64,000 bases of DNA from Rubripirellula sp. (GCA_965216875.1 OZ244207.1:6112001-6176000), one strand, 5' to 3'; positions 2,884 to 15,574 are shown, counted from the stretch's first letter. Program-made: numbers and translations. The notes: generated by a model not told the origin, from the sequence alone.

Positions 2884-4155
2884 TCAATTCACGATGGGCA
2901 GCTGACTCTCGTTGTTGCTGTCAATTGCATCGGGATCGCGATAGCTTCCGGTGTTGAAGTGTTTTGAGTAGGTTCCGAAATCGTTGAAGGCGTACTTCTT
3001 CGCCCAACGATAGACGAGACTTCGTTCCGGGATTTCGTCGCCTGGTTGGTATTGGCTCCGTCGCGGCTCCACATGTTTGAGTTCTTCGATCACATGACTT
3101 CTCGCGGTCGTATCGCGGGCACCGTGTTTTTCGGCCAGTTCAACCAGAATGTCGGGTCTTTCCATGATGACGCAGCCGCGCGTGTTCTCGGCGGTGAGCT
3201 CACGGAACTCGCGAAGGAACTCGGAGTTGTTAAAGGTCTCCGCAAGCGGTCGATCGTCGTGGATCGAATCGGTCGCGAGTTGGATGACCGGGCAAGGCTC
3301 GATGTCGCCCCACGGTCCGACATGGTGAGTGAAGCCGGTAGCGGCAGGACAGAGTGCGTTGCCAGCGTCGTCGTGGTAGGCATCGATGACGATGATTGGC
3401 TTTGTTGCGCGTGTGTCGACAACGAATTGTCGAACGCGTCGCTGCTGTTCGCTGGTCAGCGCCAATTGCGGGTTGGGTTCGGGCCCAACGGGACGATAGA
3501 TGTGATACCAACAATACATCACGCCCATTTCGATCAAACGGTCGACCCATTTATTGGTGACAAGGTCGTCAATGTTGGTTTTGCAAACGCTGGTGCAGAC
3601 GCCGACGAGCAATTTGTTCTTGATTGCGTTCTCGATACCCTGCATCGTTTGGTTCAACACGCCGTCTCGACCACGACGGGTATCGCTGATGATTTCGGTA
3701 CCTTCGACACTGATGAGCGGAGTGACATTGCCAAGGCGACGAAGTTCCTTGGCGACTTCGTCGGTGATGAAGTGCCCGTTGGTGAAGACTTGAAAATAGA
3801 CGTCGCGATTGGCTTCGAAGATTTTCAGCAGATCGCGGTGCATGAAGGGTTCGCCACCGAGGATCCCAAAGAAGCTATTCCCCATCGCTTTGGCTTGGGC
3901 GATGGTTTTGTTCGCTGCTTCCAGTTCGATGCGGTGTTGTTTCGAACCAACGTCGACCCAACATCCCTGGCATCGCAGATTGCAGCTATTGATGACCGAA
4001 AGGTAGAGGAACGGCGGGAAGAACTCGCCCTTCTTGAGCCGTCGTTTGTGTTTGTGAACGCTCAGAAGGCCGCGAACGCCGAGCGTCCAGCCAGCTTTCA
4101 AGAGGAGGCGTTTATCGGTTTCGACTAAGAATCGGCGAGCCAGGCGGAGATACAT
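2884..4155 (-). CDS. radical SAM protein with SPASM/twitch-like C-terminus
   Basis: CNLRCQGC (CxxxCxxC), GGEP and FTNG motifs; C-terminal CPAA...GDIEPCP. Confidence 0.9.
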   Translation of the reverse strand: MYLRLARRFLVETDKRLLLKAGWTLGVRGLLSVHKHKRRLKKGEFFPPFLYLSVINSCNLRCQGCWVDVGSKQHRIELEAANKTIAQAKAMGNSFFGILGGEPFMHRDLLKIFEANRDVYFQVFTNGHFITDEVAKELRRLGNVTPLISVEGTEIISDTRRGRDGVLNQTMQGIENAIKNKLLVGVCTSVCKTNIDDLVTNKWVDRLIEMGVMYCWYHIYRPVGPEPNPQLALTSEQQRRVRQFVVDTRATKPIIVIDAYHDDAGNALCPAATGFTHHVGPWGDIEPCPVIQLATDSIHDDRPLAETFNNSEFLREFRELTAENTRGCVIMERPDILVELAEKHGARDTTARSHVIEELKHVEPRRSQYQPGDEIPERSLVYRWAKKYAFNDFGTYSKHFNTGSYRDPDAIDSNNESQLPIVN

Positions 4156-4229
4156 CGAGCTGAACTTTCTCTGAATTGTGAACCTTCACTATTATGTCAA
4201 CAAACGCCCCCCAAAACAGGCCCGCGCGA

Positions 4230-4601
4230 AGGGACAGGCATATGCCAGCGGGTCGTTTCCGGGGACATGTCTCCGGGGACAGGCATTTTGTAGGCCTCCT
4301 CACCAAATTGGATTCTCCTCGGGGGACAGGCACACGCTGGCGTTGCTGACCGCGGATCGCGCCTCGGGGACAGGCATCAGTTGGAGGCGTAGGGGACAGG
4401 CACTGGTCAACGGCTCGTCGGGGAGAGCAAATCGGAATTCGCCCCCGCGACGATCATCTGTTAGACACCCCACCCGCGCCCAAGACGGGGACAGGCAACT
4501 CGCTTATGCCTGTCCCCCGTCATTACAGCAGCAAGTCAATCGGGCCGTCCTCTTGGACAGACATCTCAGGCCATGACACCACGAAACTCTTGCCTGTCCC
4601 C
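4230..4601. repeat. GGGGACAGGCA motif cluster 1 (six forward, two reverse copies)
   Basis: Forward copies at 4230 (1 mismatch), 4275, 4322, 4366, 4392 and 4487; reverse TGCCTGTCCCC at 4507 and 4591; degenerate copies at about 4261 and 4420. Confidence 0.92.
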
Positions 4602-4696
4602 CGAATGCGCGACCGAGTCCACACGCACGTGAATGTTAAACGAGGCAAGATCAGACGCACGAATTCGACGGCTACCGGACTTTTCGCTCCTGGTGA

Positions 4697-4726
4697 TTGC
4701 TTTGCCTGCATAAACACTGGTAGCAT
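4697..4726 (+). promoter_or_regulatory. putative sigma70-type promoter for a small RNA
   Basis: TTGCTT (4697-4702), 18-nt spacer, TG-n-TAGCAT extended -10 (TG at 4718, hexamer 4721-4726); the structured region begins 7 nt downstream. Confidence 0.45.
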
Positions 4727-4732
4727 TCTTGC

Positions 4733-4875
4733 GGTCGTGGTGGTCGACGGTTTGATACAAACCGTTGATCACGGTAGGAAGCCGGATAGGAGGCACACAC
4801 GACCCTCGAGTGCGGACAACTCGATTTGGAGACAGCCTGGTGAGCATCTCGCTTCACCGGGCTGTCGTTTTTTTT
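4733..4875 (+). ncRNA. candidate ~140-nt small RNA (multi-hairpin, GGA-rich, own terminator)
   Basis: P1 pairs 4733-4739 with 4798-4804. A 15-bp hairpin with 2 GU pairs spans 4740-4772. Small hairpins at 4773-4783 and 4806-4824 have GGA in their loops. Terminator stem plus T8 follows. No credible + strand CDS here. Confidence 0.55.
4831..4875 (+). terminator. intrinsic terminator on + strand
   Basis: GACAGCCTGGTGA (4831-4843) pairs with TCACCGGGCTGTC (4854-4866) and is followed by G plus 8 T. No A-tract upstream, so it is not oriented for the minus-strand gene. Confidence 0.8.
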
Positions 4876-4926
4876 GCATCGTCCTGACTCTCGCGACTCT
4901 ACTCTGTTTGTCTCACCGAAGTGCTC

Positions 4927-5697
4927 TCAACCCGACACCGATGTCCAGAGAAGCTTGGCACCCGTCGCGACCATGACGACGATCAAGAAGGTAAACACAA
5001 ATCGATTTCCCTTCTTGATCACCAACTTGGCTCCGATGACCCCACCAACAACGTTGCCAGCCGCCATCGTCAAGCCAACGCGATAGTCAACGAGGCCGGA
5101 CATCGCATAAATGGCTGCGGCCGACAAAGTGACGATGCCACCAACAAGATTCTTGATTGCGTTGGAACGAACAAGGTCGCCACAGTGAATTCCCAATAGG
5201 TGCATCGCCAACAGGAGCAAGACGCCAAGTCCAGCCTGTATAAAACCAACGTAGATCCCGATAAACAAAAAGACGACAGAGGCCCATCTATTTGGCGTCT
5301 CCTCTGAACTCGTATGCCGCCGCACGATTTGGCTGGGATTCGCAATGAGCAGACATGCCATACACAAGAACAGGAGGCCGAACGCACCCTCAAACGCTTT
5401 GCCCGGAAGGTAGATCGCAAGCATCGCACCCAATGGAACACCAGCAAGCGTCGGAAGAAGCAGCCGCCGTGTGTTTTCTCGATCAAGAAGCCCTTGCCGT
5501 GAAAACGTTACCGTCGCAGAAACACTGGACAGTGCTACGGCAATTCGGTTGGTGCCATTGGCGAGTTTCGGATCGAGCCCAAACAACATCAAAGCGGGAA
5601 GCGTTAAGAAAGACCCGCCTCCTGCGATTGTGTTGACGATGCCAGCAACGAAACCTGCCACAACCAACACGAAATACCAACCCAGCTCCCCCAACAC
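4927..5697 (-). CDS. sulfite exporter TauE/SafE (TSUP) family membrane protein
   Basis: GFVAGIVNTIAGGGSFLTLPAL, ANGTN and GIYVGFIQAGLG motifs, about 8 TM segments; probable GTG start at 5697 after GAAAGG. Confidence 0.9.
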   Translation of the reverse strand: MLGELGWYFVLVVAGFVAGIVNTIAGGGSFLTLPALMLFGLDPKLANGTNRIAVALSSVSATVTFSRQGLLDRENTRRLLLPTLAGVPLGAMLAIYLPGKAFEGAFGLLFLCMACLLIANPSQIVRRHTSSEETPNRWASVVFLFIGIYVGFIQAGLGVLLLLAMHLLGIHCGDLVRSNAIKNLVGGIVTLSAAAIYAMSGLVDYRVGLTMAAGNVVGGVIGAKLVIKKGNRFVFTFLIVVMVATGAKLLWTSVSG

Positions 5698-5865
5698 AGA
5701 CCTTTCAAAACCGCAGGCTTGTCGAACACACACCACCGCCTATTGAGACATCAATCGCGGTGAGAAGTTCGGAGCAGATTACTCTCGGAACTGATTGGAC
5801 GATAGCCGGCCGAGACTAACGCCGAAAACGACAGAACGTAATGCTGATGGGGAAGATGGCTAATC

Positions 5866-6939
5866 TCATGCCACTGCTCGGAGCGGATTCCCATCAGCAC
5901 GCAGCCATTTCTGGCCGCGCCGCACAGCTTCTTTGGACAAGCTTTCCTTCGTGCCTGCAGCTCGTCGAAAAATCCTTCCGAAGCCGTTTATTAGGCGGCA
6001 CCAAGTTCGATCATCGATCCCAATTCGTTTAAGTATCGGCGCAAGGCACGATGGAATCACGCCATCGTACTTGGCATGAAGTTGTCGCCCCGTCCAATCC
6101 AAGAGCTGAATATATTGAGTTAACCCGATATACAAGAAACCACGTTCGCTCGCGCGCCTTGGAGACACAGTCTTGCTTGTGGTTCCGTTATGGTCTGCAG
6201 CCTCATTCAGTTGAATCGGACTCATCCAGCCGCTGTGTTTTCGTTCGACGTCCCTTTCCCAATCGTGGGTATCCCTCGGCACTGCCGCGTCGCTGACCAA
6301 GTCATCGATGCGATCCTTAGCACCTGTGAACTTGCTTGTTTCCGGTGTTTCTGCCAACGAAGCTCGGACGGGATTCAGATCAACATAAACAGCACAAGCG
6401 AGCAGACTACTTTCGTCTAACAAGGGCTGGGCATGATAGCGGCCTTCCCAGAAATGGCCTGTGACCTCGTCCTCGCTGTTGGCCAGGCGAGCAATATGCT
6501 CGCTGAAATACCGCATCCACCAACTCATGTCGCTCAACCGACTGCGAATCACAGCCGTGCGTTGCTCGTTGTTGGCAATCATGTCGGTTTCTGGCTGAGA
6601 AATCTCACCAGAAGAAGCGTCGTCACTGCGTTTCTTCGGGCCAAGTCTCAGCCATCGAACCGCCACTTCTTCATCAGACCAAGACTGCACGACGTCGGGA
6701 CGGCTTCTCAGAATCATATGGGTATGGTTGTGCATGACCGAATAGGTCAAACACTCAATCCCAAATATTGAAGCCAAGAACTCCAATCGCCGCTTGATCC
6801 ATTCACGGCGATGTTCGAAGCTCTTTCCGGACACGGCATCGTTGCCGCAAAGAAAGGCACGTCGAACACAACGTTGTGTGCAATGAACAATCTCAACCTG
6901 CGAGGGATCAATGATCTCTCGCCGCGCTTGCCGAGGCAT
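5866..6939 (-). mobile_element. stand-alone Y1/HUH transposase-like nuclease (IS200-like fold, long RAYT-like type), 357 aa
   Basis: HUH motif MHNHTHMILR, FWEGRY, catalytic-Tyr motif YVDLNPVRA and C-terminal YIQLLDWTGR. No tnpB partner and no terminal inverted repeats. Surrounded by short palindromic repeats. Confidence 0.88.
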
Positions 6940-6984
6940 ATCTGCCCTCCCCCGACGAATTGTTGACTCACCCGATCGGTCCCG

Positions 6985-7013
6985 ATTATTGCGAGAAAGT
7001 GAACACTTGTCAA
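6985..7013 (-). promoter_or_regulatory. sigma70-type promoter of the Y1 nuclease gene
   Basis: Minus strand TTGACA (7013-7008), 17 nt, AATAAT (6990-6985); GGAGG RBS ahead of ATG 6939. Confidence 0.6.
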
Positions 7014-7043
7014 CCTATTAGATTTGAGTAGTGAAGTAGCTTC

Positions 7044-7163
7044 GGGGACAGGCATTTGCTTGGTGCCTGTCCCGTATTTCCCTGTGTGCCTGTCCCCTGT
7101 GTCCCTTTTGGTATTGTGCCAATCCCCTGAACCTGGCCCGCGTAAAAAGACATACCTGTCCCC
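7044..7163. repeat. GGGGACAGGCA motif cluster 2
   Basis: Forward copy at 7044; reverse copies at 7064, 7087, 7117 (degenerate) and 7153 (1 mismatch). Confidence 0.9.
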
Positions 7164-7306
7164 ACCGTGCCAATCCAGATGCTCATCCGCAGCTAACGCT
7201 GCTCCCGTGTGAGTCTCTTCACTTCAAGCGATGAGCGTGAATGTTTCTGATAGAGTGTTTCCCGCGCTTTCGAATTTCAACTTTCCACAATCTTTGGCCT
7301 CGTCGA

Positions 7307-8554
7307 ATGATTCGCCGATTTCTAACTTGTCTCACGGCTCTCGTTTTCACGTCACTCCCTGGAGCTGCCGACGATGATTGGCGAGTTTGGCGCGGCCCCA
7401 ATGCCAACGGCGTCGCGAACAGCGATCAACGTCCTCCGACTCAATGGAGCAAAACCTCCAACATCGTGTGGAAATCGCCAGTCCCTGGTCGTGGACACTC
7501 TTCGCCAATAGTCGTTGGTAATCGAATCTTCTTGACAACAGCGGACGAGTCGAACCAAGTTCAATCTGTCCTTTGCTACGACCGCACGACTGGCCAGCAG
7601 GTGTGGAAAGTCGATGCCAACCGCGGTGGATTCAGTCCGAAAATCCACAACAAGAATACACATGCTAGTCCGACGATTGCGTCCGATGGCGAACGTGTGT
7701 TTGCTGTCTTCAATAACAATCAAGCAGCCCAACTCACCGCGTTGACTGTCGAGGGCGATCAACTTTGGCAGAAAAACGCGGGCGGATTCGTACCCCGTGC
7801 TTATCAGTTCGGCTACGCCCCCTCACCACTCCTCTTTGATGACACCGTGATCGTCGCATCCGAGTTTGAATCGGCTGGTTTCCTCGCAGCGTTCGACGTT
7901 GAATCAGGAAACGAGGTCTGGCGACGACGACGTCCTCCTACGATTAGCTATTCATCACCGATCGTCGGCGATGTCGCTGGCCGCCAGCAACTGCTCATCA
8001 GCGGATGCAAACAAGTCGCCGCCTTTGACCCAAGTACCGGCACACCACTCTGGTCCACCCCAGGGATTTGGACGGTCACATGTGCGACCGTCGTTTGGAA
8101 TGATGACATGGTGTTTGCAAGTGGAGGCTATCCAGACAAGGGCACGATGGCCGTTCGGGCAGATGGCTCAGGCGAAGTCGTTTGGCAAAACCGAGTGAAG
8201 TGCTACGAGCAATCCATGCTTGTTCACAACGGCTTTCTCTATGGGGTCGATGACGGCGGTGTCGCTTATTGCTGGCGCTGCAATGATGGCAAAGAAATGT
8301 GGAAACGGCGGCTTGGTGGAAACGTTAGCTCGTCACCCATCTTGGCTCGGGGCAATATCTATCTTGCAAATGAAGGTGGTACGACCTTCGTTTTCCGAGC
8401 CGATCCCGATCGTTTCGAACCGGTCGCCAAGAACCAACTCGGAACTGAAACTTTTGCAACGCCCGCTTTTTGTGGAAACCAGATTTTCACCCGCGTCGCA
8501 ACTCGAGACTCCGGTAAGCGACAAGAGTTCCTCGTCTGTATCGGAAACGAATAG
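7307..8554 (+). CDS. PQQ-binding-like beta-propeller protein (BamB-like, planctomycete-expanded family)
   Basis: Signal peptide, DWRVWRGP motif, and repeated SSPIV and G..VW blade motifs; probable ATG at 7307. Confidence 0.9.
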   Translation: MIRRFLTCLTALVFTSLPGAADDDWRVWRGPNANGVANSDQRPPTQWSKTSNIVWKSPVPGRGHSSPIVVGNRIFLTTADESNQVQSVLCYDRTTGQQVWKVDANRGGFSPKIHNKNTHASPTIASDGERVFAVFNNNQAAQLTALTVEGDQLWQKNAGGFVPRAYQFGYAPSPLLFDDTVIVASEFESAGFLAAFDVESGNEVWRRRRPPTISYSSPIVGDVAGRQQLLISGCKQVAAFDPSTGTPLWSTPGIWTVTCATVVWNDDMVFASGGYPDKGTMAVRADGSGEVVWQNRVKCYEQSMLVHNGFLYGVDDGGVAYCWRCNDGKEMWKRRLGGNVSSSPILARGNIYLANEGGTTFVFRADPDRFEPVAKNQLGTETFATPAFCGNQIFTRVATRDSGKRQEFLVCIGNE

Positions 8555-8594
8555 CCTCCCTTTCCAACACTCGCCGTTCGTTGCTCGCTCTGCA

Positions 8595-8843
8595 GGGGAC
8601 AGGCACAAAGCGGGGCACAAAACGGGCAAAACGGGGGACAGGCATGAAGTTGATGCCTGTCCCCGCTTTCAGATCGGCCGCGCTTCTGATGAAGCATCAC
8701 CTTGCTAGCATTCCGATGCGTGGATTGCGGGGACAGGCATTCAGATTGACGGGACAGGCATTGACGAAATGCCTGTCCCCCGTTCGCTGGGCTGTCCCCA
8801 CGTTGCCCTACGCGCGCCTGTCCCCCTTCGCGCGCCTGTCCCC
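8595..8843. repeat. GGGGACAGGCA motif cluster 3 (two nested units)
   Basis: Unit 1: forward 8595 and 8634, reverse 8654. Unit 2: forward 8729 and 8751 (10-nt core), reverse 8770, 8789, 8815 and 8833 (the last three slightly degenerate). Confidence 0.92.
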
Positions 8844-8984
8844 TGGTTGGCGGTACCCGATTTGGCGCGGGTTGTCGCTTAATCTTGGGGTTGCTTTAAG
8901 CCGATAGGAACCGAGTGTTGCCTCTGCTTCCACATTGCGCGTACGGCCTTCGTCAGACACCCGACTCTTTCACATGATCCTGCA

Positions 8985-10424
8985 ATGACGTGGAGCCGAT
9001 TCAGCTTTTGGGTGTTTGCTATCACATGTGGGCTCAACGCCTTCGCGCAGCCCCCATCTGACCCCTCCGGCTCACTCGATCGGCTTGAACACCTCGAGGC
9101 AACCGTTCAGCTGCTGCAGCTAGAGCTCGAGCGACTCCACGAAGATCGTTCTGTAACTCAGGTGCTCGGCCACGATCGCGTCGAAATCCCTCATCCTTGC
9201 GACGCACCCGCCTGCGACGGAGCCGATCCCACCCACTCAAGAACCCACTACGTCACCTACGACGATGGCTGGGTGCTGCGTCCGTTCGATCGTGTTACGA
9301 CACCGTTCGAATTGAAGTTCAACCTTCACAACCAGTTTCGTTACACCGGCTTTAATCGCTCCGTCCGAACATTCACCAACAGCGCTGGCACGACCACACC
9401 CATCCGCAGTCGAAACGACTTTGACGTCAACCGCGGCCGGCTTGTCTTTTCGGGATACGCGTTTGATCCGCGTTTCACCTTCTACACCAACATTGACTAC
9501 AACACCGTCGCCCAAAACCCCGTGCTTCTGCTGCTCTCTTGGATCTCGTTTCGCCACAGTGACGCGTTGACGATTAGTGCAGGGCTTGGCAAGGTTCCGG
9601 GCACCTGGGAATGGATCGAAACTTCGCGCCGAACACTCGGATCAGAACGAACGATGGCAACAACCTTCTTTCGTCCTTCAATCACCGCAGGGATCTGGGC
9701 CAACGGCGAACTCTTCGAAAACATCTACTACGAAGCTCTCGTTGGCGACGGATTCAATACCTTCACGCTTCGCGCCAGCGAACTCGATACCAACCTCGCG
9801 TATTCAGCCAGCGTGTGGGCGGAACCGCTTGGCGATTTTGGCGTCGGCTTTTCTGACCTGGAAGAACACGCGTGCTTGGCGATGCGAATTGGCCATGGCT
9901 TCACCTTCGCCAGCAACGATAGCGAACCGACGGGCGAACCCGGCCCGGAACAGACCGTCATTCGACTCTCAGATGGAACACGGCTCGTCGAACCAGGCGC
10001 TCTCGCCCCCGGGGTCACCGTCAATCAGTTCGACATCTCACTCTACGCCGTCCACCTCGGCCTCAAATATCGTGGCGCAAGTTTCGCAACCGAGTACTTC
10101 TTTCGATGGCTCACATCACTCGAAGGAAACGGGCCTCTTCCGGTCAACTCGCTGTTTGATCACGGCTTCTATGTCCAGGGAGGCCTGTTTGTCATCCCGA
10201 AGCGGCTCGAACTTTACTCGATTGGATCCCACGTTACAGGTGACTACGGTTCAGGCCACGAGATCGCCGCAGGCTTCAACTACTACGTTGGCGGCCGACG
10301 AGGATCGCGCATTACCTTCGATGTGTCGCACATCAACGATTCACCTGCCGACCAGAGTCGCACCGGCTTTGTCGCTGGCGCAAGCGGCACACTTTTTCGC
10401 GCTCAGATGTGGACGTTCTTTTAG
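8985..10424 (+). CDS. outer-membrane porin, OprO/OprP-like
   Basis: Signal peptide, N-terminal coiled coil, QFRYT and FDVNRGRLVFSG motifs, alternating beta-strands, C-terminal Phe. Confidence 0.75.
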   Translation: MTWSRFSFWVFAITCGLNAFAQPPSDPSGSLDRLEHLEATVQLLQLELERLHEDRSVTQVLGHDRVEIPHPCDAPACDGADPTHSRTHYVTYDDGWVLRPFDRVTTPFELKFNLHNQFRYTGFNRSVRTFTNSAGTTTPIRSRNDFDVNRGRLVFSGYAFDPRFTFYTNIDYNTVAQNPVLLLLSWISFRHSDALTISAGLGKVPGTWEWIETSRRTLGSERTMATTFFRPSITAGIWANGELFENIYYEALVGDGFNTFTLRASELDTNLAYSASVWAEPLGDFGVGFSDLEEHACLAMRIGHGFTFASNDSEPTGEPGPEQTVIRLSDGTRLVEPGALAPGVTVNQFDISLYAVHLGLKYRGASFATEYFFRWLTSLEGNGPLPVNSLFDHGFYVQGGLFVIPKRLELYSIGSHVTGDYGSGHEIAAGFNYYVGGRRGSRITFDVSHINDSPADQSRTGFVAGASGTLFRAQMWTFF

Positions 10425-15310: not shown

Positions 15311-15574
15311 ATGTCACTCACATTCACCAGCGCAAGCCAGTTAGATCGTTTCGTCGAACGATTCATTGCGCGGCTCGAACTCACGGACGAACACTGCCAA
15401 CTTCGACCAAGTATCTTTCCGGCGGGCCGCTACCCAGAAGAAGCGTACGGCGTTTGGGCTGACTGGTGGGAAGAGGCTGGCGACAATGAAAGGGCGGCTG
15501 CCTGTCGCCAACGACTCGAAGTGCTCATGCCGCCATCGACACGCCATCTTCAGCACGACACACCACATTCATAG
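15311..15574 (+). CDS. small protein with a TIGR02996-like (repeat-companion) motif
   Basis: YGVWADWWEEAGDNERAAACR resembles the vyADWLeExGdxxRAxxiR motif. Confidence 0.55.
   Translation: MSLTFTSASQLDRFVERFIARLELTDEHCQLRPSIFPAGRYPEEAYGVWADWWEEAGDNERAAACRQRLEVLMPPSTRHLQHDTPHS

Follow-up and report, generated by a model that had tools for sequence, protein, structure and literature searches.

In the 64-kb stretch of Rubripirellula sp. DNA analysed here (GCA_965216875.1, OZ244207.1:6112001-6176000; hereafter the window), a gene for a Y1-type HUH protein lies among arrays of an 11-nt motif, GGGGACAGGCA, between positions 4230 and 8843. We suggest, with a probability of roughly 0.78, that this locus is a TIRtron, i.e. 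a gene for an HUH/Y1 nuclease-transposase resembling the REP-associated tyrosine transposases (RAYTs; REP, repetitive extragenic palindrome) together with a short end-repeat that is the lineage's own. In this model the gene is of the TIRYT type, and its product has the architecture of TnpA-Y1 subclass 2.3. TIRYT and TIRtron are the names that Di Nocera, De Gregorio and Rocco (2013, BMC Genomics 14:522, PMC3733652) use in the accessible text of their paper for RAYT-like genes with flanking inverted repeats and for the resulting units, respectively. The kind of element is already described; it is little-studied, and it is mobile or formerly mobile.

When both strands of the window are searched for GGGGACAGGCA at one mismatch or fewer, 22 matches are found against an expectation of 0.77 and a largest count of 4 in 100 shuffles. 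Twenty of the 22 lie within 4230-8843, 14 of them exact, and all 20 are confined to three intergenic gaps (4156-4926, 6940-7240 and 8555-8984), in agreement with the approximately 20 copies in three gaps around the Y1 gene reported in an earlier, sequence-only reading of the window. The two remaining matches, at 15499 (-) and 30837 (+), carry one mismatch each. The polarity described in the sequence-only reading is likewise seen in every unit: forward copies lie to the left and reverse copies to the right of a central head-to-head pair, in which a forward copy is followed by a reverse copy after exactly 9 nt. The orientations read ++++++-- in gap 1, +--- in gap 2 and ++- then ++--- in gap 3. 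As single-stranded DNA, the four central pairs (4487-4517, 7044-7074, 8634-8664 and 8750-8780) are predicted to fold into hairpins of 10-14 bp (-11.7 to -15.6 kcal/mol, z -5.5 to -6.9), and solo copies of the 11-mer have no predicted fold (0 and -1.1 kcal/mol). Counts by position beside the copies gave no adjoining GTAG, and no known RNA family was matched in 3500-9500 (E up to 1). The gene and the arrays are arranged as follows:

5866-6939, minus strand: Y1 gene (P0001), intact open reading frame of 357 aa
7013-6985, minus strand: promoter-like site TTGACA-17-AATAAT of the Y1 gene, agreeing at 11 of 12 consensus positions
4230-4601: array 1 with 8 copies, forward at 4230 (1 mismatch), 4275, 4322, 4366, 4392 and 4487, reverse at 4507 and 4591
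4487-4517: hairpin of array 1, predicted single-stranded fold of -15.6 kcal/mol, z -6.7
7044-7163: array 2 with 4 copies, forward at 7044, reverse at 7064, 7087 and 7153
7044-7074: hairpin of array 2, predicted single-stranded fold of -11.7 kcal/mol, z -5.5
8595-8664: array 3a, forward at 8595 and 8634, reverse at 8654
8634-8664: hairpin of array 3a, predicted single-stranded fold of -14.4 kcal/mol
8729-8843: array 3b, forward at 8729 and 8750, reverse at 8770, 8815 and 8833, with an additional degenerate reverse copy near 8792; hairpin at 8750-8780

An intact Y1 gene with its own promoter and ribosome-binding site had been proposed previously and was recovered here. The promoter-like site is placed between the start codon and the nearest motif copy, and a GGAGG-type stretch, GGGGGAGGG, ends 5 nt upstream of the ATG. 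Between 4100 and 9000 there is no second TTGACA-17-AATAAT-like site, but as shuffled sequences contain 2.5 on average, the count itself is not enriched. The protein has its HUH residues at H72 and H74 (NHTH), WE at 164-165 and the catalytic Tyr185 in YVDLNP, and an insertion of ~55 aa splits the two halves of the core. Because of this split each curated model matches half of the Y1 domain: Pfam Y1_Tnp (PF01797) matches residues 46-83, one domain half only, with 20.1 bits against a cut-off of 23, and NCBIfam REP_Tyr_transpos (NF047646, 'REP-associated tyrosine transposase') matches residues 139-201 with 37.3 bits against a cut-off of 80. H72, H74, Y185 and N189 are invariant in all 29 aligned relatives, which share the words NH(T/L/Y/I)H, FWEG and YVDLNP; YVDLNP itself is found in 23 of them and Y-x-x-L-N in 29, and the HuH word is NHYH in 9 of the 29 relatives and NHTH in the protein studied here. 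A comparison with the sequences of solved structures gave no match (E up to 10). The structure nearest to the AlphaFold2 model (pLDDT 79.7, pTM 0.83) is E. coli TnpA-REP bound to a REP hairpin (4ER8_A; Z 11.9, rmsd 2.8, 156 of 165 residues; Foldseek E 2e-3), followed by the TnpA proteins of IS608, ISDra2 and IS200 (Z 7.4-8.5, IS608 at 8.5) and by the next unrelated fold, Thg1, at Z 5.8. The invariant residues and the predicted structure support the view, also taken in the sequence-only reading, that the Y1 protein belongs to the RAYT branch of the HUH/Y1 enzymes.

The C-terminal ~95 residues form a helical domain that is kept from Planctomycetota to Gammaproteobacteria. Taken alone (model pLDDT 75.5), this domain matched no Pfam family and no structure above Z 4.1, and its weak top structural matches are helix-turn-helix DNA-binding domains of the AraC and TetR type (best Z 4.1, AraC-type), which we regard as a hint only. 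The family is large, with 7022 of 8000 scored candidates at E 1e-5 or better, and named members come from Rubripirellula, Rhodopirellula, Crateriforma and relatives, where they are labelled 'IS200-like' or 'RayT'. Many of the contigs that carry family members measure just 1.2-1.6 kb, in keeping with a repeated element.

Gene and motif occur together throughout this genome (8.26 Mb, one contig, 56% G+C). Besides P0001 it encodes three Y1 paralogs, which are about 39-45% identical to P0001 and 77-86% identical among themselves, and all four Y1 genes are bracketed by motif arrays. P0001 goes with the ...GGCA variant, GGGGACAGGCA, and the three paralogs go with the ...AGCA variant, GGGGACAGAGCA. 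Four forward copies precede the paralog at 5871696-5872667 at a distance of 161-288 nt, and it is followed at 308-771 nt by 7 reverse copies with the exact 8-nt core or 12 at one mismatch or fewer. In the case of P0001, 105-215 nt separate the upstream copies from the start codon, and the downstream copies lie past the neighbouring TauE gene.

Related genomes point to movement of the gene with its ends. Y1 homologs at E 1e-10 or better were present in 15 of 31 searched genomes, this genome included, with 22 matches in the congener G001, 10 in G002 and 9 in G012, some of these sets having near-identical scores. G001 contains three copies of a 1371-bp unit that are 99.5% and 99.3% identical, the similarity ending a few bases beyond inverted copies of A-AAAGGGACACCCA, and no flanking or target-site duplication is evident at these three copies. 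A second G001 family has units that share 98% identity, in which GGGGTCAGTGC stands 2-8 times forward and 2-10 times reverse, the number being different at each locus. The mobile units in relatives are 1.37-1.46 kb long and contain the Y1 gene only. In related genomes, gene and ends have recently moved as one unit. The idea that the hairpin is a pre-existing target into which the gene was inserted as a cassette was rejected: 11 of the 13 copies of AGGGACACCCA in G001 are the ends of four gene copies and no gene-less forward-N3-25-reverse site is found there, so that the repeat travels with the gene.

Two details of the G001 elements are described for completeness. Among the units L001-L003 (99.3-99.5% identical), 13 columns are variable; two of these stand 2-3 nt inside the left end word and six within ~70 nt before the right end word, and 1058 nt between are without any. 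At L016, a complete unit is directly followed by a second, 5'-cut copy of its Y1 gene, which has end repeats of its own (~4340-5230), and a truncated left end is also found outside the complete left end; elements of that family therefore pile up beside or within one another.

The flanks of homologous genes, which the sequence-only reading had singled out as the place to look for co-evolving motifs, do contain such motifs. Of 79 Y1 loci fetched from Planctomycetota, Verrucomicrobiota, Acidobacteriota and Gammaproteobacteria (such as Pseudoalteromonas, Marinomonas and Thiodiazotropha), the 61 with at least 300 nt on each side of the gene were used. The strict word GGGGWSAS was too narrow to serve as a family-wide test, and an unbiased search for inverted matches was used instead. 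The longest inverted match between the flanks reached at least 12 nt in 19 of 61 loci, compared with 2 of 61 for direct matches, and the inverted words are variations on GGACA-NN-CA. Copies of GGACA-N2-3-CA on the left are forward in 62 cases and reverse in 4, and on the right reverse in 47 and forward in 4; pairs face inward in 24 loci and outward in 0. In 16 of the 24 loci with inward pairs the two sides carry the identical word; when the partners were permuted 5000 times, such loci numbered 3.6 on average and at most 10, and no permutation reached 16. The motif word changes with the protein lineage. The tie between motif and enzyme assumed in the sequence-only reading is therefore upheld by the bracketing of all four Y1 genes, by this variation with lineage and by array lengths that differ between close strains, as described below.

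On one point the sequence-only reading has to be revised, in that the arrays are not local. Genome-wide, GGGGACAGGCA has 65 exact copies (33 forward, 32 reverse) compared with 1 for a reversed control word, and these group into about 13 dispersed clusters, most of them between 4.9 and 6.8 Mb; one-mismatch singletons are at background level, scrambled 11-mers giving 52-333 such matches. Sister words with a common core are present in 48 copies (GGGGACAGAGCA) and 17 copies (GGGGACAGACCA), and a looser family pattern finds 21 arrays of at least 3 copies with 164 copies together. Polarity is perfect in several other arrays, such as +++++----- at 6428108 and ++++++--------- at 6555387, and the order is less regular in arrays that mix motif variants. 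The loop between neighbouring forward-then-reverse pairs is exactly 9 nt in 7 of 27 cases, compared with no preferred spacing in the other three orientation classes, and start-to-start spacings of 18-23 bp are recurrent. The three main variants have 130 exact copies, 106 of which lie in 4.5-7.0 Mb and 52 of these in 6.0-6.5 Mb. This last bin includes the cumulative GC-skew minimum at ~6.2 Mb (skew maximum, 2.05 Mb), which is likely the replication origin, and the Y1 gene itself lies at 6.118 Mb. The crowding of the motif around the skew minimum fits either local hopping from the Y1 gene or a host role.

Some clusters depart from the simple pattern. At 6435798-6435851, 6437113-6437166 and ~6437240-6437282 a forward GGGGACAGACCAC faces a reverse GGGGACAGGCA across 21 nt, one of the three pairs reading GGGAACAGACCAC as its forward copy; by their sequence these mixed pairs would constitute a distinct doublet subfamily and would form an imperfect, bulged hairpin. 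At 6428108-6428580 and 5519881-5520052 a second box, ATTGCTAGC, which includes the palindrome GCTAGC, lies 2-3 nt inward of the motif in both orientations, and the repeat unit there is therefore about 26 nt.

The arrays also record how they change. Tandem Repeats Finder identifies three same-orientation neighbour pairs in the window as tandem duplications of whole units (85-95% matches):

7063-7106: 23-nt tandem unit in array 2, copies at 7064 and 7087, 1.9 copies, 85% matches
8723-8762: 21-nt tandem unit in array 3b
8806-8843: 18-nt tandem unit in array 3b

Contigs assembled from one sequencing run (X5) contain the same locus at ~99% identity (24 differences over 2147 nt, 31 over 2867 nt), with the Y1 gene and the arrays kept. 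Across 7.7 kb three indels plus one 1-nt deletion are reported: (i) a 21-nt unit is missing at 8730, which leaves one forward copy fewer, (ii) an 18-nt unit is gained at 8810, which gives one reverse copy more, and (iii) 21 nt are missing at 8607, in a spacer of array 3a that is a short tandem repeat. This comparison of close strains, suggested in the sequence-only reading as a way to look for gain and loss of units, has accordingly found both. In addition, X5 has a G at 4230, by which the one-mismatch copy becomes perfect. Whereas loops and spacers are completely different, the motif copies remain perfect. Once the motif is masked, no spacer is matched a second time in the genome; unmasked, the sole match of the spacers is 46 nt at 83% identity to another array, itself holding motif copies. 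The arrays gain and lose whole 18-23-nt units with one motif copy each. Given the unit-wise indels and the unique spacers, we read the stacks as built outward from a central hairpin by tandem duplication, after which the spacers drifted and the motif was kept, rather than as nested captured DNA. Growth of nested arrays by repeated strand transfer, as envisaged in the sequence-only reading, finds no support here, what is seen being tandem duplication and loss of units, and the array spacers, lacking second genome copies, show no sign of captured DNA.

How does the locus relate to known systems? The sequence-only reading contrasted it with classical REPs, and this contrast is real; but the alternative arrangement is already in print as the TIRYT/TIRtron with its TIR (terminal inverted repeat) consensus GGGGWSAS (PMC3733652). 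As in the TIRtrons of that paper, the Y1 gene is flanked by inverted repeats and not by GTAG REPs, which is clean for the three paralogs and the G001 units; GGGGACAG and the G001 variant GGGGTCAG fit GGGGWSAS; and the motif is also clustered without the gene, the TIR repeats being described as families of moderate abundance 'in dimers or clusters'. The available text of PMC3733652 does not describe the ends as polarised stacks of several copies around a central hairpin with a fixed 9-nt loop, nor does it describe gain or loss of unit lengths between strains; both are seen here. The term TIRYT was found in a literature search only in that paper and in that of Quentin, Siguier, Chandler and Fichant (2018, BMC Genomics 19:475, PMC6006769), neither of which contains biochemistry in its accessible sections, and titles and abstracts from 2014 onward, searched for RAYT and terminal inverted repeats, gave no biochemical study of a TIR-linked tyrosine transposase.

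The accessible text of PMC6006769 assigns the 26 published TIRYTs to subclasses 2.1, 2.2 and 2.5, whereas the Y1 protein studied here has the architecture of subclass 2.3. That subclass is characterised by a median length of 325 aa, NHYH, WE, YVDLNP, a HuH-Y distance of ~110, a 55-aa insertion and a specific C-terminal domain; it is named from Chromatiales and Alteromonadales, is reported without REP-like structures beside its genes and, in the same text, is not mentioned together with TIRs. It was, according to that source, not recovered by Bertels et al. 2017 (PMC5581495). Our protein has 357 aa, WE, YVDLNP, 111 residues from H74 to Y185, 55 residues between the two profile half-matches and a C-terminal domain; it occurs in several copies per genome, and full-length relatives are found in Alteromonadales and Chromatiales-type gammaproteobacteria. 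The middle residue of the HuH word (NHTH here, NHYH there) is the sole mismatch among the listed features. Thus, by its sequence and by the published description, the protein fits subclass 2.3. In two further respects our data differ from the published account as far as it is accessible: inward GGACA-N2-3-CA repeats flank 24 of the 61 loci surveyed here, whereas no repeats are reported there, and the Pirellulaceae branch is very large (7022 matches), whereas Chromatiales and Alteromonadales are named there.

A classical REP unit is an imperfect palindrome of 20-40 nt with a GTAG (or GTGG) foot. With the REPtron, i.e. E. coli TnpA-REP/RAYT with its GTAG REPs and bacterial interspersed mosaic elements (BIMEs), the locus shares the closest fold (4ER8), the class-2 Y-x-x-x-N-P word, and a gene flanked by an inverted cognate repeat that is also dispersed in clusters. 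It differs in lacking a GTAG foot and in having as its basic unit a non-palindromic 11-mer, of which only paired copies form hairpins; moreover, the copies number ~65-130 rather than hundreds, and the protein is twice as long. A single gene without near-identical duplicates, a trait of classical RAYTs, holds in this genome but not in G001, G002 and G012. Two shorter Y1 genes are also found in this genome, at 4787954-4788313 and 1539106-1539471, with open frames of 217 and 236 aa that score over the Pfam Y1_Tnp cut-off, and both lie between inverted palindromes with a GTAG foot, 23 and 39 nt long. REP/RAYT and GGGGACAG systems therefore coexist in the same genome as distinct systems.

IS200/IS605 elements lack terminal inverted repeats and carry directly oriented hairpins in a subterminal position. 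These elements (IS608, ISDra2 TnpA) resemble the locus in the HUH/Y1 fold (Z 7.4-8.5) and in the lack of a target-site duplication at the three G001 copies, and differ from it by the inverted ends and YVDLNP found here. Their TnpA carries a Y-x-x-x-Q word and has ~130-155 aa (see Table 1 of PMC6006769).

By combining these data, we suggest the following scheme. In full elements the repeat stands forward upstream of the gene and reverse downstream and so acts as a terminal inverted repeat. In this genome the repeat has also spread on its own, forming about a dozen intergenic clusters in which the gene is absent; these gene-less arrays may have been seeded in trans. The enzyme may read the 11-bp stem that arises when a forward and a reverse copy pair in single-stranded DNA, as a counterpart of the REP hairpin in 4ER8, in which case the minimal form and substrate would be the 31-nt forward-9 nt-reverse hairpin. 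Alternatively, the extra domains of the enzyme may bind the motif as duplex sites. In either case Tyr185 would nick and rejoin one strand beside the motif, and repeated local duplication on the outer sides of the central hairpin would build polarised stacks.

A more far-reaching proposal, which we put forward tentatively and consider doubtful, is that the polarised stacks are themselves products of the enzyme, each abortive nick-and-rejoin event at an end adding or removing one motif unit of ~20 nt. Origins that combine iterons with a hairpin are used by other HUH proteins, and by analogy a stack with its 11-bp/9-nt hairpin would resemble them. If this were true, an array would be a running record of Y1 activity, the extra domains of the subclass would bind duplex 11-mers while the HUH core cuts the extruded strand, and the enzymes would represent a terminal-repeat-dependent mode of Y1 transposition distinct from the IS608 and REP mechanisms.

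Several observations weigh against our interpretation of the locus as a TIRtron. Both curated family scores of the Y1 protein are under their cut-offs. The motif is absent from the 129-nt gap between the P0001 stop codon and TauE; P0001 has a direct flanking array on its 5' side only, the next 3' array being past TauE, which means that either the unit is incomplete or TauE is part of it. The paralogs of this genome are each single and diverged, so that there is no sign of current mobility here. In the survey, 37 of 61 loci are without an inward GGACA-N2-3-CA pair, and strict GGGGWSAS faces inward in only 7 of 62 loci (outward in 0). In a G002 family (L011-L013) the motif keeps one orientation from one side of the gene to the other, with the slightly different words aaggtgCCACCCACc upstream and aaagtgCCACCCACc downstream; inverted ends are therefore not universal. 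The strain comparison is weakened by the use of assembled contigs of one run instead of raw reads. Finally, binding and cleavage of the motif by the Y1 protein are inferred activities.

One alternative is a fully domesticated REP/RAYT-like system, in which the gene is immobile and kept by the host and the arrays have a host function, for example in structuring DNA near the replication origin, in stabilising transcripts or in autoregulation, with the hairpin 30 nt ahead of the -35 box acting on the Y1 promoter. Single, diverged paralogs, the retention of gene and arrays in a ~99% identical strain, perfect motifs amid loops and spacers that differ completely, and the concentration of exact variant copies at 4.5-7.0 Mb, with 52 of 130 in the 6.0-6.5 Mb bin that holds the GC-skew minimum, all agree with it. 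However, relatives of the same genus and family carry multi-copy, near-identical units of gene plus ends, which is the behaviour of an insertion sequence, and the crowding near the origin is equally explained by local hopping from the gene at 6.118 Mb. We therefore regard domestication, and with it the host functions named, as unlikely. That the arrays are binding sites of an unrelated host DNA-binding protein, with the Y1 gene adjacent by coincidence, would be in line with the recurrent 18-23 bp spacings and with the enrichment near the skew minimum; yet all four Y1 genes are bracketed, the variant follows the protein lineage with both ends of a locus matching, and 11 of the 13 G001 copies are ends of gene units, which brings this explanation close to refutation.

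The remaining alternative concerns two ordinary neighbouring genes, for TauE (PF01925, E 3e-47) and a PQQ-type beta-propeller protein (PF13360, E 9e-35). In the sequence-only reading, nicking and strand transfer at the motif were thought to capture or shuffle DNA, and these two genes could be either cargo or bystanders. A gene-capture or cassette system that nests arrays in this way and mobilises both genes could account for three colonised gaps in a row and for the position of TauE, which in gene orientation lies between upstream forward copies (7064-7153) and downstream reverse copies (4230-4487). Against this, the array spacers have no other genome match save the 46-nt one to another array, the mobile units of relatives contain the Y1 gene only, and every gap has its own central hairpin, so that each array is a self-contained unit. 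Moreover, orthologues of both genes occur in other contexts, without the tested window proteins in loci of 16-18 kb: the beta-propeller orthologue in G002 (75% identical) lies in a locus without 8 other tested window proteins and with one GGGGACAG, and the TauE orthologues in G001 and G012 (58-59% identical) are without the Y1 gene and other window neighbours within ~7-8 kb, each 16-kb locus holding at most one GGGGACAG. A search for an empty site by synteny defined none, as no neighbours among the tested window proteins are shared at the TauE (G001, G012) or propeller (G002) orthologues. We see no sign of captured or shuffled DNA and regard a cassette system as very improbable; both TauE and the beta-propeller gene are most likely bystanders, the motif having colonised the intergenic gaps beside them, the position of TauE leaving its transport as cargo at a lower likelihood.

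Gap 1 also contains a strong terminator-like hairpin at 4831-4876 (+), with a 14-bp stem followed by T8 and an orientation opposite to the flanking genes. It ends a motif-free non-coding stretch of ~200 nt (4640-4876) that has no Rfam match and may be a small RNA or a leader.

The locus adds a well-resolved example from the Planctomycetota, in which four cognate gene-array pairs with two motif variants are found in one genome, the central hairpin has a fixed 9-nt loop and arrays differ by unit lengths between near-identical strains. The link of subclass 2.3 to GGACACCCA ends would fill a gap, this subclass having been published without associated repeats in the accessible text of PMC6006769. 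For the question of how HUH/Y1 enzymes handle terminal inverted repeats, the locus and its relatives provide a clean test set: one subclass with two extra domains, a lineage-specific 11-nt word, a 31-nt hairpin, near-identical copies that look active and arrays that change unit by unit. For the annotation of Planctomycetota genomes, elements of this kind explain recurrent intergenic repeat clusters and assembly breaks.

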